Assembly: GCA_963727805.1 (NCBI GenBank)
Contig: CAVSHF010000003.1
Location: 1,056,001 to 1,120,000, forward strand
Direction: 5' to 3'
DNA length: 64,000 nt
Origin: an uncultured Nitrospiraceae bacterium
GTDB taxonomy: Bacteria; Nitrospirota; Thermodesulfovibrionia; Thermodesulfovibrionales; Dissulfurispiraceae
How positions within the stretch are numbered: the stretch's first letter is position 1; the number at the start of each line of letters is the position of its first letter. Positions 23,559 to 63,657 of this stretch are shown here, piece by piece. The notes below the pieces were generated by a model. The model worked only from the letters and a program-made list of their open reading frames with translations. It made no database searches and was not told the origin of the DNA. The translations under genes were made by a program, and so were the position numbers.

Positions 23559-23680
23559 TGAACACCTCATTCCTCAGCGATGCGGACTAAGGTGTGTTAC
23601 AAGGAAACACTCTCCAAAGCAACCATGAAAGTTATTTAGTGAATCCCCGAAATCCTAGTACTGGTAAAATCGATAGTCAG
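23559..23680 (+). repeat. Dispersed repeat, copy A
   Basis: Shares an identical 21-mer CCTAGTACTGGTAAAATCGAT (23654-23674) with 45094-45114; upstream blocks also align. Confidence 0.7.
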
Positions 23681-24108
23681 TAGGAATTAACCTTCCGTAT
23701 ATGCACCGATTCTAAAATAGGGTTCCTGCCGATTCTGGCGTCTTTCTTCCATACACAAAAGGTTCCAAAAGTCTGTTATTTTACCGATTCTCCCGATAAA
23801 ATGGCCTCTTTGAGCGTGTCAAAGAGACCTTCCGCCTTCTCCTGAACCTGATTATTGGGAAGCCCTGAATTTTCGCGCAAGAGATTTACGATATCAGACT
23901 TGGGCATAGAGAGTTCTAAACTCAGTTGGCTGCTTTTGTCGAGGGGACTGTGATCACTGTCATGAAGCAGCCGTAATATCCCTTCACAGCCTGTAGTTCT
24001 TGTGTTGATATAATGTAATCAATATTGATTTCAAGGGGCTATGTGGTCAAAATGAGAACCTTTAATGCGTTAACAGGTTATATTCACAGATATAGGCAAC
24101 AAGTTCCA

Positions 24109-25305
24109 ATGTCTCTTTTGTCACCGCAATATTTATTATTTCGCAAAACAAAGAAATGTATTTCTCTTGTATGTACTTCTTTAATATCGTTTTTTATTCT
24201 ATCCACAATAAGTGCAAGTCAAGCTTCAGTTTCCGATGTCGTTTTAAATCAGAAAAAAGCCGTTGTCAGTATTTATGTCGGCGGTCAAGACAAAGTGACA
24301 AGCATCGCTGGCAGTGGATTTATCATCGACAGCGATGGGATAGTGGTAACGAATTACCATGTTATTTCTTCGTCAATCAAGAATAATGGAAGTTCTATTT
24401 TAGTTAGGACATACACAAAAGCATATTATGTAATTGAAGACATATTAGCTTTTGATGAGGAGAGTGATCTGGCTATTCTTAAACTTGCAGCTTCCGAGCT
24501 TCCTGCGACCAGGCTTGCAGTCAAATATCAACCGAAGCAAGGAGAACAGATTGTTGTTATCGGGAGTTCCCTTGGATTAGAAACGACTGTGACGAATGGT
24601 ATCATTAGCCGTATCCGAGGCAAGAGCCAGTTGCTTCAAATCACTGCTGCCATTTCACCCGGAAGTAGCGGAAGCCCTGTTTTTAATACCAAGGGAGAAG
24701 TTATAGGAGTGGCAACATTTTTATTAAAGGGTGGTCAAAGCCTTAACTTTGCTGTTCCAGTCTCGTTAGTTCAAGACTTGGTCAAATATCCCCCAAAAAG
24801 AAGAAAATCCGGAGGCAGCGCTCAGACTCATCCATCAACTACAATTGATGACTACAAACCCAAATCCGACCCCACTCAACCTCAAAAAAACACTGCTCAG
24901 CCTCAAACATCCATCCCGTCAGCTTGGTCATTTTTTTCAATGAGTGCTGATAAAGATGCAGCCTTGTTTTATAATCCTAAGTCAGTTCACACATCTGGGA
25001 ATAAAGTAGAACTTATGGTAAAGTGGATTCATCTTCAGAAACAGGGGCCCACGTATTCCAATTCCCAGAAGATTCTTAAACAGGCACTAGGGGAATATAA
25101 TTATACGCTTTCTTATGGTATTGGCTCGTTCACATTCGATTGTGTTAGCCGCATAGGAACCGAAACAAAAGAGATTTACTATAATTCTGAAGGCTCTATA
25201 ATTTTTACATATGTGCCAGCACAACCAGTTTCTAGGTATTTTGCGTCTGACACGATCTACGGCAATTTGATGACGATAGTTTGCACAAAGCTGACCTCCC
25301 CCTGA
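24109..25305 (+). CDS. Trypsin-like (S1C) serine protease with a C-terminal extra domain
   Basis: Catalytic triad TNYHV, DLAIL, GSSGSP; Pro/Gln/Thr linker; no obvious PDZ domain; start uncertain. Confidence 0.85.
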   Translation: MSLLSPQYLLFRKTKKCISLVCTSLISFFILSTISASQASVSDVVLNQKKAVVSIYVGGQDKVTSIAGSGFIIDSDGIVVTNYHVISSSIKNNGSSILVRTYTKAYYVIEDILAFDEESDLAILKLAASELPATRLAVKYQPKQGEQIVVIGSSLGLETTVTNGIISRIRGKSQLLQITAAISPGSSGSPVFNTKGEVIGVATFLLKGGQSLNFAVPVSLVQDLVKYPPKRRKSGGSAQTHPSTTIDDYKPKSDPTQPQKNTAQPQTSIPSAWSFFSMSADKDAALFYNPKSVHTSGNKVELMVKWIHLQKQGPTYSNSQKILKQALGEYNYTLSYGIGSFTFDCVSRIGTETKEIYYNSEGSIIFTYVPAQPVSRYFASDTIYGNLMTIVCTKLTSP

Positions 25306-25790
25306 CTGGCAACAACTTCTTCCTCTGCATCATAAAACGCTAATCAGAGTTTCCTTGCAGAAGAGCAAGACTTAAGATAGCTTGATAATCTCCCACATAA
25401 CCAAACCCACGGCAAAGAACCTCTCAATGTGCTCCGTATCGGAGAGTTCAATGCTGTAAATCTTCTGAGCGATGCGATCAACATACTAGCCTACTATGGT
25501 CTGATTTGATGTTTCGATGTCGCTGGCGATTGAACTGATTTTAGTCATTGCTCCTCCTCTTTCTCCTTGAAAAAGCAGGATTCATAATGACCTTCAGTAG
25601 CCTTAAGAATCAATGAATCTTGTTACGTATAGCACCAAGCAGTCCTCATTTAGGCAACAATAGAGGGAATGAGGCTTTTGCAAAATAATCAGCTATTTCT
25701 CGGATGTGTCAGTCGAAATATCCTGCCTGTTCGGAAGGCGATATTCCGGACAGAGAACCGAGTATCAGCCAAAGCGACTCTCCTATAATG

Positions 25791-27218
25791 TTAGACGGCA
25801 ATCCAAGTTAAATAGGGATACCCTATAACAAGGAATGCGATCAGAAAGATCCCACCAAAGATCAGTCCAAGACGCCAGAAATCTTTACTAGGTATATATC
25901 CGCTTCCATAGTAAATAGGCGACGGACCAGTCGCAAATGGTGTAATTATCCCCATAATGCCGAGAGAATAGCAAAACATCAAAGCGAGCAATCTAATCGG
26001 CATCCCCGGGATAGCCATTGCGGCCGCCAAGAATACAGGCAATAGAGCAGCGACATGTGCCGTTATACTAGCGAACATGTAATGAACGATGAAGAAGATC
26101 GCGACAAAGAGGAGCATAGCCGCAAGAACGGGAATACCTTTCATGGCTCCGGCGGTAAGGACGGCAAACCAGTCTAGGAATTTCACCAATTTGAGGCCAT
26201 CGGCCAAGGTTACGAGTGTGGCAAACCAGGCAAGCACGTTCCAGGCCTGCTTATTGCCTATGACGTCATCCCACGAAATAATGCCTGTCAGAATCATAGC
26301 GCACAGCACAATAAGAGCTGCCATGGTAGCATCGAGATTGAACCAGTCGCCACCGAAAATCCAGAGCGTAAGAGCAGCAATGGCCAAGAGCGCCATAATC
26401 ACCTCTTTGCTGCTTATTTTGCCTAATTTCGATAATTCCTCAGCTGCCCATACAGGCACATCATTGCTGACTTTTACACCCGGTGGATAAATCTTATAGA
26501 TCAGATATGGGGTCACCGCAAAAAGAAACAAGCCGACTGGCAGGAATCCCTTAACCCATTCCGTCCATGAGATGCTTACGGATGCAGTTTTTTTGACAAG
26601 TTCTATAGCTAGAAGATTGGGCGCCAAGGCAGTTAGAAACATGGAGCTTGTTATGCAAGTAGTCGCAAGCGCCGTCCACATAAGATAGGAGCCTATTTTC
26701 CCGGCTGTCTCGCCAGGTTGGGAATCATAAAGTGGGGGTATGTTCTTGATAATCGGGAAGATCGTCCCTCCGCTGCGGGCTGTGTTAGATGGAGTAAATG
26801 GCGCAAGTATCAAGTCGGCCATGGCTATAGCATAACCGAGCCCAAGTGTTTTCTTTCCTAGAGCCCTGACAAGCAGCAGCGCGAGCCGACGTCCCAAGCC
26901 CGTTTTCTCATATCCCTTAGCAAACATAAATGCTATAAAAATAAGCCATACCGTACTATTGCTGAAACCGGAAAGCGCCCATTTCAAGGAGTCGGCAGGC
27001 TTGGGAGTCACGAGAAGCAAAGCACCAGCTACGGTGACGCCGAAAAGTCCCACCGCGGCCGCCGGTATTGGTTCCAAGATCAGGGCTGCGATTGCGGTAC
27101 TGAACACTGCAAAATAGTACCATGCATTCGGCTGCAAGCCCTGGGGTACTGGAATTAGGCAAATGACCACCCCAATCAACAACGGTACGATGAATTTCAA
27201 ATACTGCCTTTTTTCCAT
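25791..27218 (-). CDS. DASS family di/tricarboxylate anion permease (CitT/TtdT-like)
   Basis: TGLGRRLAL, PSNTARSGG, TALAPN, FASITAH motifs; many TM helices. Confidence 0.92.
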   Translation of the reverse strand: MEKRQYLKFIVPLLIGVVICLIPVPQGLQPNAWYYFAVFSTAIAALILEPIPAAAVGLFGVTVAGALLLVTPKPADSLKWALSGFSNSTVWLIFIAFMFAKGYEKTGLGRRLALLLVRALGKKTLGLGYAIAMADLILAPFTPSNTARSGGTIFPIIKNIPPLYDSQPGETAGKIGSYLMWTALATTCITSSMFLTALAPNLLAIELVKKTASVSISWTEWVKGFLPVGLFLFAVTPYLIYKIYPPGVKVSNDVPVWAAEELSKLGKISSKEVIMALLAIAALTLWIFGGDWFNLDATMAALIVLCAMILTGIISWDDVIGNKQAWNVLAWFATLVTLADGLKLVKFLDWFAVLTAGAMKGIPVLAAMLLFVAIFFIVHYMFASITAHVAALLPVFLAAAMAIPGMPIRLLALMFCYSLGIMGIITPFATGPSPIYYGSGYIPSKDFWRLGLIFGGIFLIAFLVIGYPYLTWIAV

Positions 27219-27468: not shown

Positions 27469-27980
27469 AGACCCTATGATTAAAAAGCAGAAGACAAGCC
27501 CCCCGATCGGGTATGTTGTATCGGGAAAGATTCAACAAACCGACAGAAGGAGGACTATTCATGAATAAGAATCGCAAACTTAATTTTGAGGGTCACAGAT
27601 TTACGTTGGGATGGATGTTCATAGGAATATCTGGAGCATTAGTATTCTTACTGATGCGTTTGAACACAAGACCTTTACGCAGCCTCCTGAGGTAGGCACA
27701 TTGGTGAATTGTCTCAAGCGCATTTTTCTTGGCACAGCATACAAATCGGTTTATGAAGCCGGCTACTGTGGTTTCTGAATTAACGATCGTCTGCAAGAAC
27801 ATGGTATTCCGTGCCTTGTAATCCGGCCGATGTACCTACGAAGGACAACGAGCGAACAAAGAAAACCGACCGAGTGGACTGCCGCAAGCTGGCAAGAAGT
27901 TTCAGAAGCGGAGAGATTGAGGGCATATTTATCCCTTCCCGGCCGAAGGTGGAGGACCGCAGCTTTATCAGAACACGATC
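27469..27980 (+). pseudogene. Degenerate IS110-family transposase 5' remnant, copy 1
   Basis: ATG 27561; frameshifted IYVGMDVH, YEAGYCG, NPADVP, KKTDRVDCRKLA; highly similar to 40704-41165. Confidence 0.8.
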
Positions 27981-28107
27981 ACTTGTGACACATTTTTTCG
28001 GAAATCAACACCTCTGGCAAAATGTCCTCAGTGTTTGATAATTATTGAGAGCGACCTCCGTTGGATGTGATAATTGTATGGCATTCAAAAACTGGAAGGA
28101 GGCCGCT

Positions 28108-29133
28108 ATGACATTTTACTGTGGAATCGATTTGCATACCAAGAAATCCCAACTCTGTATTATTGACAAGGACGGGAAAAAGGTAAAGGAGGGTAATCTC
28201 AACAATGATCTTTCGGTCATTTTTGAATTTCTAGAACCCTTCGGTAGGGATGTACATATTGCGATTGAATGCACCATAAATTGGTATTGGATTGTGGATG
28301 GACTTAAGGACAAGGGCTATGACGTAAGGCTTGCACATACATTGGGTCTGTACATGATAACAGGGGCGAAGGTAAAGACTGACAGAAGAGACGCATTTAA
28401 GTTGGCAAAACTTCTCAGGATGGGTGAACTCCCGGAGGCGTATATTTATCCCAAGGAGAAAAGACCATTGAGAGACCGCTTAAGGAGAAGGGCAGGCCTT
28501 GTTCATGAGCGTGCCGAATGCTATTCGAGCTTGAGGGTACAGTTCATAAAGTATAACCTGAACACCATGAGCGGTAGCGAGTTGAAGAAGCTCTTACCTG
28601 CAGATCTTCATATTATGCCGATCCCTCAGCAAGTGAAGGATTACTGCGTCATGATACTGGAGAGAATCGACCTGCTATCCAACCAGATTGACAAGCTCGA
28701 TACTGGGTTAAAAGACATCACGTTAGAAGATCCCAGATTCAAGCTTCTGTTAACGTTGCCCGGCGTAATGTACGTGCTTGGATTGACGATCTATTACGAG
28801 ATAGGAGACATCAGCAGATTCAGAGATGTCAGGCAGTTTGCATCCTATTGTCGTTTGGTGCCGGGTGTATCTCAGTCCTCCGACACAGTAAAGAGAGGGA
28901 AGGGAAAGAAGCAGGGGAATCATTATTTGAAGTTTGCATTTACCCAAGCCGCCAATATTGCGGTCAGGTATTATCCGAAGCTCAGAAAGTTCAGGGACCA
29001 ACATGCCAACAGAAGGAAGGGCAGTGCGGCTACGATGGTGGCCAACTGCATTCTGGCTCACAAAATAGCCAACGCTACGTTTCATATGTTGAAGGAAGGG
29101 GTCCCTTTTGACGAGGCAAAGCTTTTCGGCTGA
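28108..29133 (+). CDS. IS110-family DEDD transposase/recombinase
   Basis: GIDLH, AIECT, KTDRRDA, LVPGVSQSS, GNHYLK motifs; RBS AAGGAGG. Confidence 0.95.
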   Translation: MTFYCGIDLHTKKSQLCIIDKDGKKVKEGNLNNDLSVIFEFLEPFGRDVHIAIECTINWYWIVDGLKDKGYDVRLAHTLGLYMITGAKVKTDRRDAFKLAKLLRMGELPEAYIYPKEKRPLRDRLRRRAGLVHERAECYSSLRVQFIKYNLNTMSGSELKKLLPADLHIMPIPQQVKDYCVMILERIDLLSNQIDKLDTGLKDITLEDPRFKLLLTLPGVMYVLGLTIYYEIGDISRFRDVRQFASYCRLVPGVSQSSDTVKRGKGKKQGNHYLKFAFTQAANIAVRYYPKLRKFRDQHANRRKGSAATMVANCILAHKIANATFHMLKEGVPFDEAKLFG

Positions 29134-29420
29134 TGGGTGGCGGTAATACCCGCCTGATAAGTGGGCTCATAAGCCCGAGTGTTTGATTGGTAGCCGCCAT
29201 CTGTCTTTAAAAAAATGGAGGTGTTTTGACATTGTCTGCCCTGGCCGGTAGCTCCACGATAACTGATGCTGCCCTGTGCAGACATCGACTGCATTTGCTG
29301 AATGAGGCTGGTCAGGAACCGATAACTTTCTGGTGCCGCAGAGCAAGCTTCATTGCCCTGCAAGGGAGTAATCCCACAGAGCCCGTATGGATGTTTGATG
29401 CAGATAATGGTTCTGCATCG
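29131..29420 (+). ncRNA. Predicted seek/bridge RNA
   Basis: Stem-enclosed loop with CCTGATAA (29153-29160), hairpin GGGCT/AGCCC and AGTGTTTGAT (29178-29187, identical to left flank 28030-28039); ATGGATGT (29387-29394) equals the right end; RNA ends approximate. Confidence 0.7.
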
Positions 29421-29948
29421 TTTTCAGAAAGACGAGACAGATTATTCATGTCAAAGGACTTCTAATGATATACGGTCTTAGGAATAAAAGACTGTCGGCA
29501 TACTTTTTTCTCTTGACACGGTCGCTCTCAATGGATGTTTTCAGGTGGCACCACCATTTCCCATCGACGAGCGCTGGTCTCGCCTTCGGGAAGAAAGCTT
29601 GTGTAATAAACCATATATCTGTGGCGATGACTGTAAATAGTACAGCTCAGTGTTCGCTGCTCATTGTCACCTGAAACCCCACGCGTTTGAGCAATTGAAT
29701 AGCGCGTGAATTTTGATTGTAACGTTTCGTTCCCGCAATTTACGAGGGGTCTTCCTTTCTCTGAACACCATAGGAAGGTCGTCCACATAAATGATGACAA
29801 ATTTTATCAGATCAGCTCACTGATTACCGCATCATGAACTAACTAATTGCTACGACACGAGTGCATGGAACGGTTTACAAGCTGTTCCCAAAAGTGTATA
29901 TTTCTAATAGCAGCCATCCAGAAACGCATCTCATCTCTAGGAGGTTTT

Positions 29949-31324: not shown

Positions 31325-32284
31325 GTGAGTCCCCCGTGTACGCCCTGATTATAAGATTTTTTGCGCTGGTCTGATTTTCGGCTCTAAAGAAGTCTTCCTA
31401 CTTCAAGCTTATACAACAGTAAAAACTTAATATGTCACCACAAATTGTATTGTGTAGGCATAAAATATTAGTTGCCTGATAGGTCAGGACAATACGTTTT
31501 GTACAGGAACTTAACACCAAGCGAACTATATTCCCGATAGTACTTCATACAATTATGATTAGGTCGACTACTGTGATGTACTGTGAAAAAGTTAGTCTGC
31601 GAATAGCACCTGATACACCACACTTTTGTTAAATTATAGACGATAATTATGTCAAAAAATCGTCTCGGATAACCGACAAGCTTTAAATCTTTAGATTTGG
31701 TGACGCCCGTCACAGCAATCCAGAGGGACTGACCTCCACGACAAAACAAAGAGGCGCATAGCCGCAGCGCAAATGGATTCAAGGAGCAGCGTGCGCTCAC
31801 AAAGGAAAAATCTGTTTCGCTCATTTGTATTTACAGATGTCAAAGATTTCTCCAGGAACTTCGCACTGGAGCAGCTAGATCCAAAAAGCACACGATGGAA
31901 GAACGAATGAACAAATTCGGGCAACTTGTAAAGTTACAGGATGACCTTCCCCGAGTATTTCTGTTTGTACATCTCCGCAGATTCAGGGTACCCGCTGGTG
32001 CGTCTAACTCTGAGCAGTTGATACAATGAATACCGATTTTTTCCAAAGGCGTTGATTTGCGATTCAATAATCAAATGTTGATCGTTTTCGAAGTCTGACC
32101 TATTGGGGTCCGAGGCTCGGCCGAATTATTTTTGTTATTGCATCACCGCCACTTTATGAAAAATACCATGTCCAATTTGTCACTCCCAGAAAGATAACTA
32201 GGGCGAGAAAGATTATGCACTAAAAGAGGATTAATATCCGTGGTATAAAAACCCTTCGGAATACATTTAAATTCCAAGTAGTTA

Positions 32285-32312
32285 TGGTCGGAGCGATCCG
32301 ATTTGAACGGAT
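32285..32312 (-). other. tRNA-Pro 3'-end fragment, att-core-like site 1
   Basis: Minus strand ATCCG-TTCAAAT-CGGAT-CGCTCCG-A-CCA forms a T-arm, acceptor strand and CCA; the 5' half of the tRNA is absent. Confidence 0.7.
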
Positions 32313-32585
32313 TTTCGCCCTGCCATTCTTTTCTTATATTTAAATATGTTATGCCATCTTAAAGCCCTAAAATCGGTGGAGTGGACGTAGAGTGGACTGG
32401 ACGTTGATCGCATGACAAAAACTATGTGTTAGTGGCCTTAAAATCGCTTTGGTGAGGATCTGTCGCCCAAAAGTACCTACTGATGATGACCATCGACGCT
32501 GCCGGCATCAGATATGGTGATTTGCGAAAATAACTGCTACAGAAGAATCCGTCCAACATTTTGACCTTTGATGGACAACGCATAC

Positions 32586-32641: not shown

Positions 32642-33100
32642 ATGGACGAAAAACAGACATTAAAACTTATCGAAACAGTGGGCCGGGAGTGCCTTGCTGG
32701 TCGTGTACGCAAGCTCAGTCGCGTGATCACCGGAATATATGACAGGACCATGCAGCCCCATGGGATCAAAGTTAACCAGGCAGGCATCTTGATCATGCTC
32801 TCTCTCGTCGAGAAACCGACGGCTGGCGATATATGCCGATATTTTCAGATGGAAAAATCAACAGTCAGCCGCAACGTCGAACGCATGAGGAAACAGGGCT
32901 GGATAGAAGCCAGCGAAGGAGAGGGGACTCTTTCTCAGGTACTCACGGTCACTCCGAAAGGGAAAAAGATGCTGGCTGATATTTATGGAAAATGGGAAAA
33001 GGCCCAGAGAGAGGTGTCCGAATTGCTGGGCGAAGATGGTGTGAAGGCGATCCACATCCTGACTGGCCGCCTCTCAGAACCAAAGGAGAGAGAGAAATAA
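32642..33100 (+). CDS. MarR family transcriptional regulator
   Basis: Winged HTH MEKSTVSRNVERM..QGWI; LTVTPKG. Confidence 0.9.
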   Translation: MDEKQTLKLIETVGRECLAGRVRKLSRVITGIYDRTMQPHGIKVNQAGILIMLSLVEKPTAGDICRYFQMEKSTVSRNVERMRKQGWIEASEGEGTLSQVLTVTPKGKKMLADIYGKWEKAQREVSELLGEDGVKAIHILTGRLSEPKEREK

Positions 33101-33120
33101 GACATTTTTTTGGATTAGAG

Positions 33121-33134
33121 GTTGCATATACACC
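33121..33134 (+). promoter_or_regulatory. Second copy of the putative MarR operator
   Basis: GTTGCATATACACC, 13/14 identical to 32616-32629, just upstream of ATG 33148. Confidence 0.65.
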
Positions 33135-33147
33135 CAAGGGAGACGGC

Positions 33148-34488
33148 ATGCAAAATCTGAATGGGCACCCAGCAGTAAAACGCTATTATGAAAAGAAGGG
33201 TGGAAGCAAAGGTGTCAATATGGCGTCCAAGCTCAGTCATAACGACATCCGGCGGATGTGTCTTGAATTCGGCGCTGACGACATAGGTTTTGTAGAGATC
33301 GATAGACCGGAGCTTGACGATCAGCGAGACGATATCCTGAAGATGTTTCCATGGACAAAATCATTGGTGAGTTTTGTCGGACGACTCAACCGGGAAAACC
33401 TGAGAAGCCCAGCCCGCTCTGTATCAAGCTTGGAACTGAATAAGGTCAGCGATAAACTTGAAGATACGTCTCACAAATTGGTGGCCTATCTGGAACGCAT
33501 TGGGGTGAAAAGCGTCGCACCTGCTGTAGGGTTCCCAATGGAAATGGACCAATGGCTTGGAAAGATATTTGTTGTTTCTCACAAACCGGTCGCAGTAGCG
33601 GCTGGACTCGGGCAGATGGGACTGCATCGTAGTGTTATACATCCGGTCTTCGGCAGTTTTGTGTTGCTCAACACTGTGCTAATCGAAGCAGCTATGGACG
33701 AATATAACGCTCCACTTGATTACAATCCCTGTCTCGGATGCAGACTCTGTTCAGCCGCCTGTCCCACTGGCGCAATCGAGCCGGACGGCTATTATAACCC
33801 TGCAAACTGCATGACACACACTTACCGGGAACTGATCGGAGGCTTTACTGACTGGGTCGAAAATATCGCGAACAGTAAAAACTCGTGTGATTATAGAAGC
33901 AAGGTGAGCGATGCCGAGACCGTATCCATGTGGCAGAGTCTGGCGAATGGGCCGTGTTACAAGTCCGTCTATTGTATGGCGGTATGCCCAGCTGGAGAGG
34001 ATGTTATGCCTGAGTTTCTTACTGACAGGAAGAAATATATAAAAGACGTCGTAAAGCCGCTGCAGGATAAGGAAGAGACAGTCTATGTCCTTCCAGGCTC
34101 CGATGCCGAAAGTCACGTGCTCCGCGCGTTCCCCCACAAAAAAATTAAGCGTGTTAATAACGGCGTCAGGCCGCCTTCAATCAAGTCCTTCCTCGGCGCC
34201 ATCCCAATAGCGTTTCAACGTAATAAGTCGGCAGGGATTGATGCCACTTATCACTTCACTTTTTCAGGAGAAGAACATGTATCGGCAACAGTCACTATTA
34301 CTAACAAAACCGTAACTGTCAAAAAAGGACATGAAGGCGTTGCTGATATTCACATAAAGGCCGACAGCAGTGCTTGGTTGAGGGTGCTGCATAAAGACAG
34401 CCCGATGCTAAAAGAAATTGTTTTCAGGAACATACGGGTCAAGGGACCGATAAGGCTGTTGAAGGCATTCGGGAACTGTTTCGCATAG
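33148..34488 (+). CDS. QueG/reductive dehalogenase-like Fe-S protein with a C-terminal SCP2 domain
   Basis: GADDIG, SHKPVAVAAGLGQMG, CLGCRLCSAACP, C...CMAVCP; SCP2-like C-terminus (IRVKG). Confidence 0.8.
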   Translation: MQNLNGHPAVKRYYEKKGGSKGVNMASKLSHNDIRRMCLEFGADDIGFVEIDRPELDDQRDDILKMFPWTKSLVSFVGRLNRENLRSPARSVSSLELNKVSDKLEDTSHKLVAYLERIGVKSVAPAVGFPMEMDQWLGKIFVVSHKPVAVAAGLGQMGLHRSVIHPVFGSFVLLNTVLIEAAMDEYNAPLDYNPCLGCRLCSAACPTGAIEPDGYYNPANCMTHTYRELIGGFTDWVENIANSKNSCDYRSKVSDAETVSMWQSLANGPCYKSVYCMAVCPAGEDVMPEFLTDRKKYIKDVVKPLQDKEETVYVLPGSDAESHVLRAFPHKKIKRVNNGVRPPSIKSFLGAIPIAFQRNKSAGIDATYHFTFSGEEHVSATVTITNKTVTVKKGHEGVADIHIKADSSAWLRVLHKDSPMLKEIVFRNIRVKGPIRLLKAFGNCFA

Positions 34489-34526: not shown

Positions 34527-34613
34527 TAAGTAGTACAGTGGTCGGTTCTCAATAACACCTGATAATCATCGAAGTTACCGGTACTAGGAATTTAGTGATT
34601 CCTAGAAAAAATA
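34527..34613 (-). repeat. Dispersed repeat, copy C
   Basis: Reverse complement aligns with 45067-45160 (CCTAGTAC, CGATGA, CAGGT, GAGAACCGACCA, CTGTACTACTTA). Confidence 0.75.
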
Positions 34614-34854: not shown

Positions 34855-35487
34855 ATGGCTCGTTTACTTTATATTGAGGCTTCGCCAAGAAAAGACCGTT
34901 CAGCTTCCATCGAAGTTGCCAAGGCCTTTATTGAAGCCTACAAGGTTTCGCATCAGGGTGATGTCATTGATACTATAGATCTCTGGAAGGCAGACCTGCC
35001 GCCTTTTGACGGCGATACAGTCAACGCTAAATACTCGATCCTTCATGGCCAGCCGAAGACCCCTGCTGAGGAGAAGGCATGGAAGGCGATCGAGCGGATC
35101 ATAGCTGATTTCAAATCAGCGGACAAGTACCTTTTTTCGCTGCCGATGTGGAATTTCGGCATCCCGTACAAGCTGAAACATTATATAGATATACTTGTCC
35201 AGCCGTCCTATACATTTTCTTACTCCCCCGCGGAAGGCTATAAGGGCATGGTGACAGGCAAACCGGTAGCGATAGCGTATGCCCGAGGAGGCTCTTATCC
35301 AAAGGGTACGCCCGAGATGTCTTACGATTTCCAGATACCCTACTTCCAACTGGTACTCGGCTTTATCGGGTTCACAGATGTTAAGCAGATAGTGGTCGAA
35401 CCGATGCTCATGGCCGAACCTCGTCAGAAACAGGATATCATGGAAGTCGCGCGGAAAGAGGCCCGGTTCATAGCTCAAAATTTCTGA
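34855..35487 (+). CDS. azoR: FMN-dependent NADH-azoreductase
   Basis: ASPR..RSAS, PMWNFGIP..LKHYID, ARGG, LGFIG motifs. Confidence 0.9.
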   Translation: MARLLYIEASPRKDRSASIEVAKAFIEAYKVSHQGDVIDTIDLWKADLPPFDGDTVNAKYSILHGQPKTPAEEKAWKAIERIIADFKSADKYLFSLPMWNFGIPYKLKHYIDILVQPSYTFSYSPAEGYKGMVTGKPVAIAYARGGSYPKGTPEMSYDFQIPYFQLVLGFIGFTDVKQIVVEPMLMAEPRQKQDIMEVARKEARFIAQNF

Positions 35488-35794
35488 AGATATGATAGCT
35501 GTACATTGATCATTCTGCATAACAAAGAGGGAGCGCTTTGAGTCGGGCTACGGTGTTAGACATGCAAACGTGTATTTATAAGTTATAATGAAAAGAGAAG
35601 TGCGTTGTTACTTAGGATGCAAATCTTCGATAGTTTCTTATGATACTCAGCATCTGACCAGCTTTATGAAGGGTGCAGCATAGGACGCTTGGCCGAGCAA
35701 GACCTCTCAGAATTACCTTTTAAACGAAGCACCTATGCCTTTCATGGCAGCCTAGCGATTGCTGTGATGATCTGAGGTAGATGCTAACACATAC

Positions 35795-35838
35795 TAATAA
35801 TCGAGAGGGACCTCAGTATCATAAAATCGATGATTAGC
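35795..35838 (+). repeat. Dispersed repeat, copy D (core only)
   Basis: AATCG-N27-TGATT with TAAAATCGATGA. Confidence 0.5.
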
Positions 35839-36127
35839 AAAATAATTTGGTATTCCCAGGCAATTCTGACAAGGCGTGATGCTTCCTAGACGCAGCGTGG
35901 CTGACATGCTTGTGAGCTCTACTATTATAGATTGAACTTGATAATTAAGCGCCTTCTCCAAATTCTCTGGGAGTCATTAATCTCAAAATAGTTGTTTGAT
36001 TGAAAGGCTGGCCGTTCAGTGATATTCTGTAACAAGAAGGGAAGCTCCCGCAACAGAGACTAAAATATTTGCGCGGTAGCAGTTATATGCATTAATACAC
36101 AACATGCATGAGAAAGGAGAACAGAGC

Positions 36128-36448
36128 ATGAAATACTTAGTGATCGGTTCTGGAGGACCTGGGTTTGCCAATTCAGAAGAAGCAGTCAGTGTGCTTCAGG
36201 AAATAATACTTCCAAGTTTTGATAAACTCATTGGGCTTGAGAAAAAGAAAAAAATCCTTGCTGGTGGACTCCCTGTGGGAGATAGGGCATTCGTGTTCAT
36301 AGCTGAAGCAGCTTCGAACGAAGAATTAGATCAACTGCTTCGAGAGCTTCCTATGTGGGGCGCTTTAGATTGGGAAGTCACCCCCCTTCAAACATTCGCC
36401 GGCAGAGCAGCCCAAGAAAGAAATATAGTCAGAGAACTTAAGAAGTAG
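36128..36448 (+). CDS. Muconolactone isomerase-like small protein
   Basis: EAASNEELDQLLRELPMW...EVTPL motif; RBS AAGGAG. Confidence 0.7.
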   Translation: MKYLVIGSGGPGFANSEEAVSVLQEIILPSFDKLIGLEKKKKILAGGLPVGDRAFVFIAEAASNEELDQLLRELPMWGALDWEVTPLQTFAGRAAQERNIVRELKK

Positions 36449-36456: not shown

Positions 36457-36490
36457 AAACGGGGATGCGGTTCTGACTGTATCCCCGTTT
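36457..36490 (+). terminator. Terminator hairpin
   Basis: AAACGGGGATGCGG...CTGTATCCCCGTTT directly after the stop. Confidence 0.6.
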
Positions 36491-36523
36491 AGGTCTGTTA
36501 GGCTGTGATGCAGAAATGACAAT

Positions 36524-36589
36524 ACCTGATAGTTCTCACCGAGGACACATCGTCAAAGATGTTGAGTTCCCCAATAATGTGTCACAAAT
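36524..36589 (-). repeat. Dispersed repeat, copy E
   Basis: Reverse complement aligns with 27983-28033 (TTGTGACACATT, TCAACA, TGTCCTC.GTG) and ends in TATCAGGT. Confidence 0.6.
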
Positions 36590-39824: not shown

Positions 39825-40290
39825 CGTATTTGGCGATTCGCTGCTATGAAGACGGCGCAGTTTTGAGTCGCCCCCAGATTATTTTCTACCCAGCAATATA
39901 TTCAGGATACTTCTCCACGATTGTTTGCTATGAGTTATTATTTCCCCAAAGGCAATTTCGGAGTAAGCTGCAGCGCATGAAGTGAGCTGTTAATCAACGC
40001 CTTCGATTGCCCCGCCACCGACGTTCATCTTTGACCTGGGCTATTCTTAACTACTTTCTTTAAAAGACTCGTGTTTTTTGTGCATTAGGTGTTTACTTGC
40101 CTGGAAAAGCGCGCTGCCTATAGGTATGTTAAAAATGAGAAGGCAGCTCAGCAGGAAATTATGCATCAGTGGGGTCATGACAATGTACGAACTCAGAAGC
40201 ATTATATTGTCGACAATTAGGATGGTTACCCACGTGGCACCTGCGTGGCTTAAAATAACGCTTGCAAAACCATTGAATTACATGGGCTTT

Positions 40291-40318
40291 TGGTCGGAGC
40301 GAGCCGATTTGAACGGAT
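40291..40318 (-). other. tRNA-Pro 3'-end fragment, att-core-like site 2
   Basis: 27/28 identical to 32285-32312 and in the same orientation. Confidence 0.7.
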
Positions 40319-46001: not shown

Positions 46002-47258
46002 TTATGCGGCCTCCTGTAACAATGTTATTGAGAAGTCTTTTCTGTACACGCTTTGATCACGCACGATGGCGAATATGATTCCAAGAAGTTTCCTTGCAAC
46101 GGCGATCAAAGCTTTGATCTTGGGCATTCCACGCTGGAGGTACTGTTGATATGGATGATGCATTATTCCTCCTCGGCGAACTGCATTGAGTGCGGCAAAG
46201 AACAAGAGTTTACGCAGAAGTGGGCGGCCTCGCTTGGATATGCGCCGTTTTCCCTGATGTTTACCCGAACTGATCTCATACAGGTCCAGGCCAGCGAGCT
46301 TCAGAATCTCTGAGAGGGTTCTAAACTTACGAAAATCACCAACCTCACCAATAAGACCGGCAGCTGTGACCTCCTTGATACCCTTGATCGACAGGATCGA
46401 ATCACTGTATGGGATCTGTTTCAGGTAATAGGCCATCTCTTTTTCCAGACTCTCGGTAAAGGACTCAGCTGCATCCATGATAACAAGAAGCTCTCGCATC
46501 TCACGGATAATGCTTGCCATGCCTTCAGTCACGCCCACAGATGTTTGGGCAGCCTCAAAGAGGGCCTTAGCACGGTCTTCCTTGAGTTTTCCACGGCTTA
46601 TCTTTCTGAGTGTGTTGGTCAAATTATCAAGACCATACTCGACAATATCCTTTGGTGCCGGACACTGCTTAAGTAGATATCGGGAGCTTAATATTTTCAT
46701 ATCCTTCATGACATGCAAGAATTCCGGGAAGACGATCGCAACCAGACTGTGGAGTTGATTCACTGAAGCCACAAAACGCTCATTGCTCCTCTCCCTGGCC
46801 TGTGTGAGCCTCCGAAGCTCTGCAGCCGGACCTTCCGGTATCACAACTGTCAGGGCGTGGCCGAGAGCCATGATATCGGCAATGACCTTCGGGTCTTTCT
46901 GATCGGTCTTATTCGGCGAATTGCCCTGCAAATCCTTCACCCTCTTAGTGTGCATAGGGTTAACCTGTACCATATGAACTCCTCTTGCGCGCATGAAATG
47001 CACCAAAGGCTCTGCGAACGAACCAGTAGATTCGTATCCAAACACAATGTTATCAAGATTATAGAGATTCTTGGCATGCAACACTTGGTTCCAGAACTCT
47101 TGAAAACCACCGCCGTTGTTCCAGAAAGCAAAAGGCTTCACATCGGTTCCGTCCGGACAGCGCCAGTACCCAAAATGTTTGTCTTTGCTCATATCAACAC
47201 TCACGATCAGGGTTTGTCCGTTGACTACTTTAATCTTTTTTGTTTTAATCTTATTCAT
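46002..47258 (-). CDS. IS110-family DEDD transposase/recombinase
   Basis: SVDMSK, YESTG, KTDQKD, AGLDL..SSG, ISKRGR motifs. Confidence 0.95.
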   Translation of the reverse strand: MNKIKTKKIKVVNGQTLIVSVDMSKDKHFGYWRCPDGTDVKPFAFWNNGGGFQEFWNQVLHAKNLYNLDNIVFGYESTGSFAEPLVHFMRARGVHMVQVNPMHTKRVKDLQGNSPNKTDQKDPKVIADIMALGHALTVVIPEGPAAELRRLTQARERSNERFVASVNQLHSLVAIVFPEFLHVMKDMKILSSRYLLKQCPAPKDIVEYGLDNLTNTLRKISRGKLKEDRAKALFEAAQTSVGVTEGMASIIREMRELLVIMDAAESFTESLEKEMAYYLKQIPYSDSILSIKGIKEVTAAGLIGEVGDFRKFRTLSEILKLAGLDLYEISSGKHQGKRRISKRGRPLLRKLLFFAALNAVRRGGIMHHPYQQYLQRGMPKIKALIAVARKLLGIIFAIVRDQSVYRKDFSITLLQEAA

Positions 47259-47519
47259 GGCTATACTCCTTTCTTTGGTTCGGATTTAACCAACTCGCCA
47301 ATTGGCTCCAAATCAAGAAAGAGTATAGCCTTTTTAAATGGCCATCACTACCCTTCTTAAATATAGCAAGCTACGAACCCACGTCTTCAAATACATGACC
47401 AAGGTAATGCAGCGTCTTCATTAATGAAGGCTGTCTGCTCATAGCGCCCACAACCCGGCGTATCCGGGACTGCGGTTTAAAGAAACATGCAGCTAGCTGC
47501 GATTTTGTGGCAATCTACA

Positions 47520-47675
47520 GTACTGCGCCGGCAAAGACCGATAGCTTCAATGGTGCGGATCTGCCCGTCTCATAGCGTGGTCCTGGGTCACGTCTGCGAC
47601 ATTGGTGAGTCCGGCTATGCCAGACATCCCGTTTGAGAGATTGATCAGAGTGACGTACCCGTACCGGCGTAGCAT
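47520..47675 (+). ncRNA. Predicted bridge RNA
   Basis: CTCATAG (47569-47575) equals left flank plus core; TTGAGAG (47633-47639) equals right end plus core; enclosing stems present. Confidence 0.55.
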
Positions 47676-47699
47676 TCTGGTGAGATAACGGAGGGAACT

Positions 47700-49046
47700 G
47701 TGGGAAGAAGACATCGTGCTTTGACATTGAAGCATCCAAATGCTGCTGGTATCGATGTAGGTGCAGAAAGCCATTTTGTGGCAGTACCGCCAGATCGGGA
47801 CGATGAACCGGTACGGGAGTTCAGGAGTTTTACTGAAGATTTACACCGCATAGCGCAGTGGTTGTCTAACTGTGGAGTGGACATAGTGGCGATGGAGTCC
47901 ACGGGGGTCTACTGGATATCGTTGTATGAGTTCTTAGAGTCAAAAGGATTCACGGTATATCTGGTGAATGCGCGACATGTCAAAAATGTTTCTGGTCGCA
48001 AATCGGATGTATTGGATTGTCAATGGATACAGCAGTTGATGAGTTATGGGCTTTTGTCGGGTGCCTTTAGGCCTGCAGATGAGATATGCGCATTGAGAGC
48101 AGTGTCACGGCAAAGGGAGATGCTTCTTAAGTATCAATCTCAGCATGTACAGCACATGCAGAAGGCTCTTGCGCAGATGAATATTCAGATAGTCAATGTT
48201 ATTGCAGATATCGTAGGGGAGACTGGACAAAAGATAGTGAGAGCAATAATCGCTGGAGAGCGTGACCCCTATAAGCTTGCAAGCCTGAGGAACTACCGAG
48301 TAAAAGCGAGCGAGGAAGAGATAGCAAAATCATTGCAAGGCAACTGGCGTCAAGAGCATTTGTTTGCACTTAAACAGGCCGTTGCATTATTTGATGCATA
48401 CTCGGAGCAGCTTCGTCAGTGTGATTGCCAGCTCCAGAAGATGCTTCAGGAACTGAAGCGGTATGATGGAGAGCCTACATCTATATATAGTAAAGCGAGA
48501 TCTCGCAAAAAGAACGAGCCTCAGTTTGATTTGAGGTCATATCTGGTAGGGATGTGCGGAGTGGATTTGACCCGCATTGATGGAATAGAGGTAACGACTG
48601 CGTTGAAAATAATGTCGGAGGTGGGTCCGGATCTGTCGCGGTTTCCATCCGTAAAGCACTTCACTTCATGGCTGGGTATATGTCCTGGCACTAAGATATC
48701 TGGTGGAAAGAAATTATCCGGGAAATCCAGAGCTGGCGCTAACCGTGCAGCTCAGGCGTTAAGATTAGCCGCTCATGCATTACGTGCGAGCAAGTCGGCA
48801 TTGGGAGCCTACTATCGTCGTCTATGCTCCAGATTAGACAAAGCCAAAGCAATTACAGCTGCTGCACATAAATTGGCCCGACTAGTTTATACAATGCTTA
48901 CAAGGGGAACAGAATATGTGGACAAGGGGCAGGAATACTACGAAGAACGTTATCGACAGCGTGTTGTCCATAACTTGAACAAAAAGGCTGCGGCTATGGG
49001 TTTCGTTCTTATGCCGGCTCCGGAGAAGGCCTGTGGAATGCCATGA
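47700..49046 (+). CDS. IS110-family DEDD transposase/recombinase
   Basis: GIDVG, MESTGVYW, RKSDVLD, WLGICP..KISGG motifs; GTG start with RBS GGAGG. Confidence 0.95.
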   Translation: MGRRHRALTLKHPNAAGIDVGAESHFVAVPPDRDDEPVREFRSFTEDLHRIAQWLSNCGVDIVAMESTGVYWISLYEFLESKGFTVYLVNARHVKNVSGRKSDVLDCQWIQQLMSYGLLSGAFRPADEICALRAVSRQREMLLKYQSQHVQHMQKALAQMNIQIVNVIADIVGETGQKIVRAIIAGERDPYKLASLRNYRVKASEEEIAKSLQGNWRQEHLFALKQAVALFDAYSEQLRQCDCQLQKMLQELKRYDGEPTSIYSKARSRKKNEPQFDLRSYLVGMCGVDLTRIDGIEVTTALKIMSEVGPDLSRFPSVKHFTSWLGICPGTKISGGKKLSGKSRAGANRAAQALRLAAHALRASKSALGAYYRRLCSRLDKAKAITAAAHKLARLVYTMLTRGTEYVDKGQEYYEERYRQRVVHNLNKKAAAMGFVLMPAPEKACGMP

Positions 49047-49212
49047 GATTTAAAGCTGTTTCTTGAGAGAAGATTGGGTTTGAGGATGGCACCTGTTATA
49101 ACGACATTACAGCATACTACGCGGGGGTAGACACGGGATTAGAAAAGTCTTGCTTTTTTAACATAGAAGTAATTATTTGGGATGGGAATCCTGTGTGCTC
49201 TGAAGGTAATAA

Positions 49213-50625: not shown

Positions 50626-50626
50626 A

Positions 50627-51264: not shown

Positions 51265-51426
51265 GCCAATTATAATCCTTTATTGGAAATGGTACGCTTG
51301 AATTAAGAAAAGGGAACAGGTGGGTGGAACAATGCTTATGAACGGTTATTTGAAGAGGCTAAAGCCCTCAGGAATGGATCAGGGGCGAGTGAATATAAAC
51401 TGCATAAGATAATGAGGAGGTGTAAG

Positions 51427-51819
51427 ATGTTTCTCTACAAAGGTGGACATTCGGTTAAAAAGGGTACGTATTGGGAATCCGAGAAAAATGAGAAAATAGT
51501 ACTGAAAGAAAGTGGTTTTCTGCCCGGAGGCGATAAGGATCTATATTTCAGGCTTCCGGAAAGCTATTTCTTAATCCCTCTGTTTCTGTTAGGCCTGGCA
51601 CTGTCGATGGCTTTTCCCTACGGCGTAGGATTTGTGGCGTTTCTCGGTCTAATAGCTCTGACCGGCGCAATCTATGCCGCAGGGTTCGCAAGTATTAAAC
51701 TCTTTAAGGAAATGTTAGGTAAAACAGCGACTTTTGGGTATGTGCCTACCACTGCATATATGACCGGTAAAAAGACAAAGAAGATCAAGAAAGACGAATC
51801 ATCGGAAGAAGAAAAATAG
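51427..51819 (+). CDS. Small membrane protein, tandem paralogue 1
   Basis: KGG..VKKGTYW, LPG, LPESY, 2 TM, FGYVP..AY.TG, Lys-rich tail; RBS GAGGAGG. Confidence 0.85.
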   Translation: MFLYKGGHSVKKGTYWESEKNEKIVLKESGFLPGGDKDLYFRLPESYFLIPLFLLGLALSMAFPYGVGFVAFLGLIALTGAIYAAGFASIKLFKEMLGKTATFGYVPTTAYMTGKKTKKIKKDESSEEEK

Positions 51820-51858
51820 AGTCTTTAAGGGATTCGGGCATAAGCGAGGAGGTATAAA

Positions 51859-52260
51859 ATGTTTCTATTCAAAGGTGGGCAAGCGGTAAAGAAAGGCACT
51901 TATTGGGGTGCCGGGACGACAGGTAAGATAGTCCTGAAGGATAACGAATATCTGCCCGGTGCCGAGCGGGAAGTGTATTTCAAACTTCCGGAAAGTTACA
52001 TCCTGATTCTGCCAATGCTGCTTGCCCTCGGGCTTCCCATGGTCATCCCCGTTCGTACAGAGTTCATGATGATTGCGCTTGTCGTCGCCACTATTTTGGC
52101 GTTCTATGTGGCAGGAATGGGCTTTTCCGTGCTCATCAAGAAAATGCTTGGCAAGACCGCGACATTCGGGTATGCGCCGACTACCTCATACCTGGCGGGG
52201 AACAAGATGAAAAAGACGAGGAAGGAAAGCTTGTCTGAAGAGGAAAACAGGAGAGGGTAG
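51859..52260 (+). CDS. Small membrane protein, tandem paralogue 2
   Basis: Same motifs as paralogue 1. Confidence 0.85.
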   Translation: MFLFKGGQAVKKGTYWGAGTTGKIVLKDNEYLPGAEREVYFKLPESYILILPMLLALGLPMVIPVRTEFMMIALVVATILAFYVAGMGFSVLIKKMLGKTATFGYAPTTSYLAGNKMKKTRKESLSEEENRRG

Positions 52261-52331
52261 TGACACATTTTGCATCGGTTAAAGCACTGCCTACTGAAAC
52301 AATGGAATCAGTTGAAAAGAGGTGAACAAAA

Positions 52332-52748
52332 ATGATCATTCATCATGGTGGAACGGCTGCAACAAAGGGATGGTATTGGAGTCCCATGGATGGCGGGCGA
52401 GTCGATATGCGGGACAATGGCATACTTCCAGGGGATACGACTTGCAGTTACCTTAAGATGTCTCCGCTAATTCTTCTTCTCATCGCGCCTCTGTTTGGAA
52501 TGACTTTTACATTCTTCCTGCCGCTCTTTGGGATCGGGGTATTGTTTATCTTATGTTTGCTTCCCGTATTGGGTGTTTGTTCAGCGGTAACCACAACTGC
52601 GCTTCGGGTTTGCGATGGGATTACCGGCAGGCGCGCTACTGCTAGAAAGCAGGTTTCTTTCGTCAGTTTAAGTCCATCGAGAGCGTCTTTTACAGGTGCT
52701 ATGAGGAAGAAGAAAAGCGTTCAAAAGGCAGTTAGAAAGGCAAAATGA
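52332..52748 (+). CDS. Small membrane protein, tandem paralogue 3 (divergent)
   Basis: HGG...KGWYW, GILPGD...YLK, TM helices, SP..ASFTG, Lys-rich tail. Confidence 0.8.
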   Translation: MIIHHGGTAATKGWYWSPMDGGRVDMRDNGILPGDTTCSYLKMSPLILLLIAPLFGMTFTFFLPLFGIGVLFILCLLPVLGVCSAVTTTALRVCDGITGRRATARKQVSFVSLSPSRASFTGAMRKKKSVQKAVRKAK

Positions 52749-52759
52749 GGAGGTGTAAA

Positions 52760-53152
52760 ATGTACATTTACAGGGGCGGGCAAATAGTAGAAGAAGGAAC
52801 ATATGTGGAATCAGCAAAACATGGGAAAGTCATATTAAAAGCAGACGGCTTCCTTCCCGGGACGGATAAAGAAGTGTATTTCAAGCTTCCGGAAAGCTAT
52901 CTCCTGATCCCTGTGCTTCTGTTCGGCCTTGTCCTTTCGATGGCTTTTCCCTATGGCATCGGCGTAATGATCTTTGCCGTGTTGTTTGCCATCCACAATA
53001 TATTGTTCTCGCTTGTTTCCGCTGGCGAGGAATTACTGGGGGGCTTGTTTGCACACTTTACCGCGGGATACAAACCAAACATGTCCTTTTTTTCTGGAAA
53101 TTCTAAAAAGCTGAAGAAGCGCAAAGCAAGAGATACAAAAAAAGAAGGATAG
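52760..53152 (+). CDS. Small membrane protein, tandem paralogue 4
   Basis: RGG..VEEGTY, FLPG, FKLPESY, SMAFPYG, GYKP..SFFSG. Confidence 0.85.
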   Translation: MYIYRGGQIVEEGTYVESAKHGKVILKADGFLPGTDKEVYFKLPESYLLIPVLLFGLVLSMAFPYGIGVMIFAVLFAIHNILFSLVSAGEELLGGLFAHFTAGYKPNMSFFSGNSKKLKKRKARDTKKEG

Positions 53153-62813: not shown

Positions 62814-63035
62814 ATGACTAAATCGACAGTTATAGCTCTGACTTTTATCGCTATTGGGTGTCTGCTTGTAATCTATACAGTTTTGCTGCTAAACGATTTT
62901 CTTTGTTGCCGCATCATGCTTTTTTCAGATTACGGACGTTATAGTAATCAAATTTTGCCGGTCATACTTTGTGGATTGGCTGCTTTTTTGTTTGTTGGCT
63001 TGGGGTTCTGGATCATTACCAAGGGGGAAAAATGA
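62814..63035 (+). CDS. Small two-TM membrane protein
   Basis: RBS GAGG, two hydrophobic segments. Confidence 0.5.
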   Translation: MTKSTVIALTFIAIGCLLVIYTVLLLNDFLCCRIMLFSDYGRYSNQILPVILCGLAAFLFVGLGFWIITKGEK

Positions 63036-63184
63036 CTGAAAAGGAGGACTCGATTATCTTTACTGGAGGAGCTTATATCGAAAAGCGTCCAACTTGCTAA
63101 CAGCATTTCTATGACGGGAGGAAATTAAAATCGCAAAATAGATTGCGTCTACCGTCAAATCTTACTTGAAAGGAGGTGAAGAGA

Positions 63185-63442
63185 ATGAAGAAGGTAGTTA
63201 CCATGGTTATAGCAGTTATTTTTGTTATGGGTCTTGCCTCTTTCGGCTTTGCGGCGGGACTTGAGAAGTGTGACAAGTGCCACAAGGGCGAAAAGGCAGT
63301 AGACAAGATGGTTGAGAAGAAGAAAATCGCCACAGCTGCTGACCTCAAAAAGGCTTTAAGAGAAGGTCCGAAAGCTGGCTTGCACAAGTCGTTAACCGAC
63401 GAGGATCTGAAGGCAGCCGCAGCAGCTCTTAAACTGAAATAG
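63185..63442 (+). CDS. Small monoheme cytochrome c
   Basis: RBS AGGAGG, signal peptide, CDKCH, distal His. Confidence 0.8.
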   Translation: MKKVVTMVIAVIFVMGLASFGFAAGLEKCDKCHKGEKAVDKMVEKKKIATAADLKKALREGPKAGLHKSLTDEDLKAAAAALKLK

Positions 63443-63572
63443 GCTTTCCCAAATAAAGAGGCTCGCCATAACAAATATTCCATGGTGGGCCTTTTTATTC
63501 TTTCCCTTCATTCTTTGTATCCAGGTTAGGCGATGATAGCTTAAGGTTAGTAGGGACATCTCTATCGCGAGA

Positions 63573-63657
63573 CAAGAGACACTCGACGAAGTGGCCACGA
63601 TAGATTTTTTTCGGTAATCATCGATTCAGGCTTACTGTGGGCACTCATGATTATCAG
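63573..63657 (+). repeat. Dispersed repeat, copy G
   Basis: GATAG.TTTTTTT.GGTAATCA-N27-TGATTATCAG; upstream blocks match copies A and F. Confidence 0.6.

Follow-up and report, generated by a model that had tools for sequence, protein, structure and literature searches.

The 64,000-bp window analyzed here (positions 1056001-1120000 of contig C3 in the genome of an uncultured Nitrospiraceae bacterium, labeled G000) carries a dispersed family of sites, in each of which a 7-bp core separates a left from a right arm. The sites lie between cargo genes, gene-free segments and mobile elements, and they are very probably recombination sites that bound mobile modules. The original prediction had described the family as about eight copies of a repeat with a fixed AATCA-N27-TGATT core. 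The window features that belong to the family, are bounded by it or interrupt it are listed below, with nhmmer E-values or position weight matrix (PWM) scores where available. IS stands for insertion sequence, and G003 is another genome of the same genus.

23554-23686, plus strand: gene-free mini-module of type M, ~128 bp (nhmmer E 4.7e-25; PWM 35.7), with a right-type arm at its start, a degenerate left arm at 23632-23683 and the core at ~23680-23686
25420-25639, minus strand: left-end remnant of a two-tyrosine-recombinase element; core CTTGGTG at 25633-25639, then the terminal CTATACGTAAC from 25632
27993-28037, plus strand: left arm of the site split by an IS1111-type element (PWM 38.6 for the IS-free site)
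~28038-29535, plus strand: IS1111-type element with 13-bp subterminal inverted repeats, four copies in the genome; transposase 28108-29133 and a 3' non-coding region; predicted target guides 29153-29160 and 29177-29185, predicted donor guide 29387-29393
29538-29640, plus strand: rest of the split left arm, core TCAGGTG (29541-29547) and gene-free mini-module U (~93 bp), which terminates in a class-2 left arm with its core at 29634-29640
29638-29680, minus strand: segment S, ~33 bp long with a right-type arm at either end, plus an inverted site, core 29668-29674
32477-32535, minus strand: degenerate left arm and core, one end of the MarR/Fe-S module (nhmmer E 2e-5; PWM 3.1)
32642-34488, plus strand: cargo, a MarR regulator and a 4Fe-4S/SCP2 protein (85% identity with G003, where the context differs)
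34528-34610, minus strand: site with left arm 34559-34610, core TCAGGTG at 34556-34562 and an S-type right arm (PWM 54.6)
34855-35487, plus strand: cargo, a flavodoxin-like fold protein
35791-35845, minus strand: site, left arm and core (PWM 34.0)
36104-36448, plus strand: cargo, a muconolactone isomerase-like protein
36464-36577, minus strand: site with left arm 36526-36577, core 36523-36529 and a right arm (PWM 20.4)
42392-42522, plus strand: mini-module M; an IS110-type element interrupts its left arm at the core (PWM 35.5 without the IS)
42523-43944, minus strand: IS110-type element with a non-coding region upstream of its transposase (42527-43729); eight related copies
43945-43990, minus strand: segment S and an inverted site (core ~43978-43984), completing the locus that the IS110-type element splits
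44993-45160, plus strand: mini-module M (44993-45123), core 45120-45126 and an S-type right arm (nhmmer E 9e-34; PWM 53.8)
63566-63660, plus strand: incomplete mini-module M; left arm 63606-63657, core TCAGAAG (PWM 44.9)

Extent and distribution of the site family

The repeat family is real, as initially proposed. A profile built from the copy at 44993 found 54 matches in the genome at E<1e-3, while the best match in the reversed genome had an E-value of 0.27 (nhmmer); the left-arm PWM gave 64 genome matches and none on the control. Seven of the eight copies listed at the outset hold (left-arm PWM 20.4-54.6). The one at 49213 fails (-11.8), and the copy at 35795, assigned to the plus strand, reads on the minus strand. 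Overlooked were the IS110-split site at 42522 and the site at 29637 (both plus strand), those at 29671, 43981 and, degenerate, near 32480 (minus strand), and the element-end remnant at 25632 (minus strand).

The family is also much larger than the eight copies suggested: it is genome- and genus-wide and comprises several arm classes. G000 alone has at least 111 sites, 68 and 43 in two left-arm classes, and reversed controls have none. We base the site totals on these two counts; a 200-entry catalogue contains duplicates and off-register entries, and a blast-based set of 126 junctions, which includes mirror pseudo-junctions 46 bp off, was set aside. The copies are ~70-85% identical to one another and scattered over the terminus-proximal half of the chromosome, where their arms occur in both orientations and numerous combinations. 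Nearly all are intergenic, as open reading frames (ORFs) contain only 3 of 68 junctions compared to 65% of nearby random points. Their orientation is not biased relative to replication, with 33 of 65 sites on the leading strand inferred from GC skew (p=1.0). Searches of the window for Rfam families and transfer RNAs (tRNAs) gave no match. Elsewhere in the genome (C3:2245860-2247400), a site that follows the CCA end of a tRNA-Met-like gene at a distance of ~15 bp holds nested IS110, intron and IS1111 insertions.

Within the genus, a sequence-only model detects the family in six of eight genomes (59, 68, 29, 4, 3, 3, 0 and 0 matches). G000, G003 and G004 are site-rich, G001, G005 and G006 have few sites and G007 has none. 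Outside the genus the family is almost absent. Only 5 of 150 genomes of the order had a match, each a single weak one (strict filter, 26 candidates scored per genome), weak matches occurred in two of five selected genomes, and the plasmids and phages searched had none. Exact-pattern scans hit one metagenome contig and no viral one, with a pattern too strict to judge distribution. An isolated good site lies just upstream of an ATP synthase operon in a genome from another family (L357:9509 in G229).

Site anatomy and assortment of arms

The AATCA-N27-TGATT motif constitutes the left arm only, and the 7-bp core lies at its right edge. Main-class left arms (~52 bp) consist of a T-tract, CGGAAATCA, 27 bp and TGATTTTCAG; those of the second class end in GATTTTAAG, and the catalogue holds additional classes. 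The exact motif with a spacer of 27 or 28 bp occurs merely twice in the window (chance mean 0.30; 2/100 shuffles), so what had been taken as a fixed core is a degenerate consensus. Among the right arms, families U, S, M, K and Q can be distinguished, of which the ~45-bp U arm terminates in the same box at the mirror position. The commonest cores (n=138) are TCAGGTG (17), TAAGTAG (16), TCAGTAG (10), CTTGGTG (7) and GGAGGTG (5). Box spacing is maintained across three genomes. Of 60 arms, 44 carry ATCA-N5-TT, a spacing like that of the IHF consensus, which we use only as a lead.

Left and right arms assort independently across the core. For neighboring 10-bp blocks, linkage amounts to ~0.5 halfway along the N27 arm and falls to -0.09 at the core/TCAG end (64 sites). 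Pairs of sites similar in both arms have a frequency of 0.0011 versus 0.0010 expected under independence, as counted for the 119 in-register sites of 216 drawn from G000 and parts of G003-G006. The original prediction took conserved spacing around a decayed interior as the sign of a recombination site; the linkage data place the exchange point at the core and not in that interior. The AGTACT center does mark one subtype, but block linkage rules it out as the point of exchange.

We considered a number of other identities for the repeat. Folding of 97 sites revealed no hairpin (mean z from -0.39 to +0.17), and complementarity of mirror pairs was no higher than predicted from column frequencies, that is, there is no covariation; attC-like folding, a structured RNA and a tRNA were all negative. 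The best dif-like sequence of the genome is a single site at the GC-skew switch (C3:516986, minus strand) and is unlike the family. A decayed gene is rejected, since stops occur in 16-22 of 23 copies in every frame, and there is no mod-3 pattern. Comparison with 11 multi-copy IS types gave three matches, all on two sites directly beside IS copies. Likewise, a transposase locus adjoins just 2 of 54 copies, which there form the target; this excludes the non-coding end of an IS110/IS1111 element. The family survived both its shuffled and reversed controls and the two derivations that had been put forward as alternatives, from coding sequence and from IS ends.

Modules between the sites and elements within them

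Cores bound gene-free mini-modules as well as modules of one or two genes. Taking consecutive junctions up to 4 kb apart, we obtained 121 segments (the catalogue includes some duplicates), 59 of them shorter than 200 bp, and gene-free modules reach 20 or more copies. The suggestion of a non-autonomous element suits these mini-modules, though they belong to the same system as the sites themselves. Direct sites flank 87 segments, and 34 are inverted (21 between two right arms, 13 between two left arms). In two co-oriented arrays, C3:790-797 kb and C5:61-66 kb, each site precedes one small gene; elsewhere the orientation is mixed. Judged by eye, right arms of the C3 array hold extended -10-like hexamers immediately before the genes, and the cassettes may hence carry their own promoters.

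Such hexamers, together with the IHF-like spacing in the arms, would also be expected if the boxes were binding sites of host proteins (IHF-like or regulators) or promoter parts, with mobile elements merely gathering at neutral intergenic repeats. We consider this explanation very improbable. It does not account for the sharp loss of linkage at the core, for the copy numbers of gene-free modules or for the register in which the two-recombinase element (see below) sits in the core; moreover, some sites lie downstream of genes on both sides.

Some modules have relocated at cores. The homology of the MarR/Fe-S module with G003 begins at TTATCAG of the site at 34559 and ends inside the arm at 32500; in G003 the module has a different left arm and the core TCAGTAG instead of TCAGGTG. 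The gene module upstream of the 23554 mini-module loses its homology with G003 at 23564, and contigs of runs X1 and X4 depart from the window sequence at 25633, at the element-end remnant. In both G000 and G003, a recombinase module (C5:27200-28957) is flanked by arms on either side, with different DNA beyond them, and modules duplicated within G000 at C3:807286 and C3:790714 break at cores. Finally, a contig of run X3 connects 36463 to 34608 via 110 letters, compared with the 111 predicted for an arm swap between the sites at 34559 and 36526. Such a joint would mean that two window modules stand in permuted or circular order; it comes from a single contig of a relative (depth 5.2, shorter side 118), and the agreement is one of length alone. 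Other joints from the same comparison were left aside, and runs X2-X4, which have small shares only, do not enter into any inference on habitat.

The dependence on that one contig counts against the explanation that we favor (see below), and so do three further observations. Most of the 26 inspected segments shared by G003 and G000 end without recognizable sites, and most of the 21 duplicated query segments within G000 likewise end off them, implying that not all accessory DNA moves via the sites. Core positions 0 and +1 are only weakly linked to the right arm (0.60 and 0.47 versus 0.38 and 0.43; 30 pairs).

The sites could also be scars of one-way accretion, in which small non-autonomous elements inserted into earlier ends and decayed. 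The limited similarity of the copies, the many truncated or interrupted arms and the lack of an intact candidate enzyme in G000 would all agree with this, as would the predominance of direct-repeat flanks, which nesting or tandem insertion yields. What makes accretion distinctly unlikely in our view is the independent assortment of arms of many classes, the existence of inverted segments, the box spacing retained in three genomes and the order of modules in the X3 contig. Linkage, module context and arm data all support the initial proposal of protein-type recombination sites delimiting cargo modules.

The sites are, in turn, targets of other mobile elements. IS110 and IS1111 elements and a group II intron are hitch-hikers, and their predicted RNA guides match the site consensus. 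Each element was removed in silico and the rebuilt site scored on the arm PWMs with a cut-off of 14, which 6 of 150 intergenic controls reached. For IS110-A, six of eight copies lie in sites scoring at least 14, and all eight best registers are at offset 0 or -1; by eye, its predicted guide stretches vary with the arm class targeted. The corresponding counts are two of four for IS1111-B, two of three for IS110-D and seven of ten for an ORF-less 637-nt group II intron (RF01999, RF00029; fixed offsets 41 or 52-53). With element ends that were mis-set in this scoring (by 3 nt for IS91), IS1111-C gave 0/2 and an IS91-type element 0/8 on the two arm PWMs; both IS1111-C copies are followed by TTATCAGGTG. 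Although 15 of 16 IS91 flanks have further copies in the genome, the IS91 target AGTA^GNAC is unchanged in genomes without family sites. Its left and right ends are unlike the arms, and IS91 ends were rejected as a source of arms; the target preference is regarded as intrinsic.

That the window's IS1111 element targets the repeat, as originally noted, is borne out, yet it is merely one hitch-hiker among several. It encodes a DEDD transposase, carries inverted repeats in subterminal position and has, downstream, a non-coding region in which stretches match the target. These are traits of the IS1111 family, for which such repeats and such a downstream region have been described (PMC11187229). 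Its predicted guides read GAGTGTTTG and CCTGATAA, and the matched target is GTGTTTG followed by TTATCAGG; the guides do match the site, but an additional A in the target string first given was wrong. Comparable targeting is known from other systems: IS1111 elements and group II introns target attC sites (PMC3001079), and IS1202-family elements target pdif sites (PMC10132070).

Several observations concern these elements or the window more generally. One IS1111-B copy (C3:2248092-2248709) tandemly duplicates the last ~315 bp of its guide-RNA region. The intron copies are C3:611977-612614 and nine more; related 1.8-kb copies at C3:1126258-1128098 and C5:45109-46949 both hold a 360-aa ORF that could provide protein in trans. 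The IS91-family element with an upstream integron-integrase-like recombinase occurs at C3:887338-889906 and in seven more copies, and relatives of this recombinase are present in 46 of 390 genomes of the class. In the window, 27469-27935 and 40704-41163 are truncated copies of another IS110-family element with full copies at C4:1625-2895 and C5:1-1271, several of them inserted after TCACAGAC. Two divergent IS110 elements make up a 3.4-kb block (45736-49174) of which a duplicate lies at C5:438085-441526 (98.7%). Two tRNA 3'-end-like remnants (32247-32312 and 40253-40318), attachment-site leftovers, are unrelated to the main family. Four tandem paralogues of ~135 aa, the first without a Pfam match, lie at 51412-53152 upstream of a multiheme cytochrome/NrfD operon.

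The candidate recombinases and known systems

The candidate element was traced from a recombinase fragment close to a site in G004; it is 2.08 kb long and encodes two tyrosine recombinases in tandem (340 and ~311 aa, 29% mutually identical; L392:1831-2853 and the next gene in G003). Both look intact, with catalytic residues present by eye, and other ORFs on the same strand are at most 51 aa long. The element has 12 matches in G003 and four in genome G200. All 11 G003 copies with both ends have perfect 11-bp terminal inverted repeats, and the element's cores in this genome are cores of the site family. Copies of subgroup 1 have CAGGGTG as their invariant right core and diverse left cores (CAGAGTG, CAGGGTG, CTTGGTG twice, TCAGGTG and GGAGGTG); those of subgroup 2 have CATGTCG on both sides. 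Right cores fixed per subgroup and variable left cores are also found in G200. The empty site of locus L396 reconstructs a near copy of the window site at 34559, and 14 of 23 element flanks match at least two places in G000 as opposed to 22 of 200 intergenic controls. Furthermore, the terminal 11-mer CTATACGTAAC follows a family core in gene-free modules of G000 (C5:59808) and G003 (L265, L269), with variants in others; the element and the modules thus share an arm.

From these sequence comparisons we lean slightly towards genus-wide attachment sites whose enzyme is the two-recombinase pair or a close relative. With the same slight preference we take the whole to be a non-integron cassette system run by this pair. 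The pair would insert, excise and reorder modules at the attachment sites. Strand exchange would take place inside a 7-bp overlap in which mismatches on the left are tolerated and the right 2-3 bp mostly kept, in line with the left variation and right retention at the element's own junctions. The donor core would be copied to the far end, as in the 'footprint' of SE/Tn554 elements. The recombinases may act in trans on modules without recombinase genes, and the outer boxes ~45 bp from the core, one with IHF-like spacing, may be helper binding sites. In G000 the system would be dormant, because only element-end remnants persist there.

A more far-reaching joint claim is possible, though we do not expect it to hold in full: that a two-recombinase transposon seeded hundreds of double-stranded mix-and-match sites, making a chromosome-wide cassette system in which it reshuffles accessory genes in trans. 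This would be a new class of system, an equivalent of the integron without IntI or folded attC, with sites so dense that IS110/IS1111 and intron guides were re-programmed to its boxes.

One point against the two-recombinase pair as the enzyme is its distribution. No intact element is present in G000, G004 has only the fragment, and the element was not found in G001, G005 and G006, which have few sites. In the class it occurs in 23 of 390 genomes, mostly without the site family, and there only 2 of 29 element ends have multi-copy flanks (20-100 kb fetched per genome). Insertion without family arms in other genera means that the element needs no long arms and may itself be a hitch-hiker. In addition, just 4 of 11 left flanks in G003 reach at least 10 on the main left-arm PWM, the element's arms have no outer boxes, and its 11-mer does not resemble most family arms.

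Insertion without family arms and the missing outer boxes also speak for another enzyme acting on the same cassette-system sites, be it XerC/XerD with helpers, the IS91-type integron-integrase-like recombinase or an unassembled or unrecognized recombinase; the two-recombinase element would then be another of the hitch-hikers and match the core by chance. XerC/XerD and eight IS91-linked recombinases are indeed intact in G000, along with a single-gene element (L011) and remnants. Nevertheless, we regard this as unlikely, given that the dif-like site differs from the family, that the IS91 element keeps its target where sites are missing and none of its eight copies scored on the arm PWMs (with the 3-nt error in ends), and that the element's terminal 11-mer itself serves as a family arm. 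No large serine recombinase was found in G000, the small ones are of IS607 type with unrelated ends, and L012 is a phage-integrase remnant between tRNA-like ends. L011 has its own distinct ends, does not co-occur with the sites and is present in G007, which has none.

L011 (C5:27486-28460; homologs L029-L035) is a ~950-bp element with short inverted ends (CAGACCC.GG-like) and 131 relatives among the genome contigs searched, mostly in Nitrospirota and Syntrophales. Two multi-gene recombinase islands, L370 (G004:C184) and L164 (G003:C1), which by eye are GInt/gamma-mobile-trio-like, end next to a family site. IntI (TIGR02249 over the cut-off) is missing from G000, G003 and G004; two of the eight genus genomes, G005 and G007, have it. 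Their integron integrases (~460 aa) are at L355 (G005:C111) and L354 (G007:C6), the latter beside an ordinary attC-like site.

To our knowledge, integrons and Xer/pdif modules are the only well-established systems that build accessory regions from single-gene units. The pdif modules of Acinetobacter plasmids, recombined by XerC/XerD, resemble the present system in having short two-armed sites in both orientations, small modules and dedicated IS that target the sites (PMC10132070). A dif/pdif site is 28 bp long and consists of a XerC arm, a 6-bp spacer and the XerD arm TTATGTTAAAT (PMC10132070). In contrast, the family described here has ~50-bp arms with outer boxes, a 7-bp core and no match to the XerD arm; it is chromosomal, exceeds 100 copies, and has several arm classes in mostly direct orientation. 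Integrons share co-oriented arrays of sites and genes, gene-free cassettes and exchange at the edge of a conserved arm, and they too are targets of IS1111-type elements and group II introns (IS1111-attC, IIC-attC) (PMC3001079, PMC11187229). Unlike integrons, our family has neither hairpin nor covariation, no replication strand bias and no IntI in the three site-rich genomes.

The candidate element has its own relatives. SE, Tn554, GInts and RITs also combine several tyrosine recombinases with short terminal inverted repeats (PMC10214605, PMC3414803, PMC8138268), and the 2.08-kb element has the SE/Tn554 footprint, with the target core at the near end and the donor core at the far end (PMC10214605). 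Unlike SE/Tn554, however, it has no unusually large recombinase and no Tfp/Srap or TnpC helper genes, and its targets are a dispersed family that also bounds passenger modules. RITs have three tandem recombinases in ~3.5 kb and inverted repeats of 28-34 bp, compared to two genes, 2.08 kb and 11-bp repeats here. The available text of PMC3414803 and PMC8138268 gives RIT, BIM and Tn554 groups and no such pair, and that of PMC10214605 has neither this two-gene group nor a site network; the supplements of these papers may list two-recombinase elements. Our literature search, which covered few subscription papers and no supplements, found no description of the site family. CIMEs and tandem accretion similarly produce chains of modules separated by attachment-site remnants. 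Unlike these, our family is not anchored at a single tRNA or gene end but occupies the terminus-proximal half of the chromosome with many arm combinations in both orientations.

Overall, the system works like pdif modules and integron cassettes, yet by the structure of its sites, and for integrons also by the lack of IntI in the site-rich genomes, it belongs with neither. If our interpretation is true, it would add to the list a third system, which is genus-wide, uses double-stranded sites and tolerates mismatches in its 7-bp core. Laboratory transposition has not been shown for RIT and GInt elements (PMC10214605), and two-recombinase elements, their relatives, would gain a function. The sites also constitute a natural data set on guide evolution, as several IS110-family lineages and an intron aim at different boxes of the same recombination sites.

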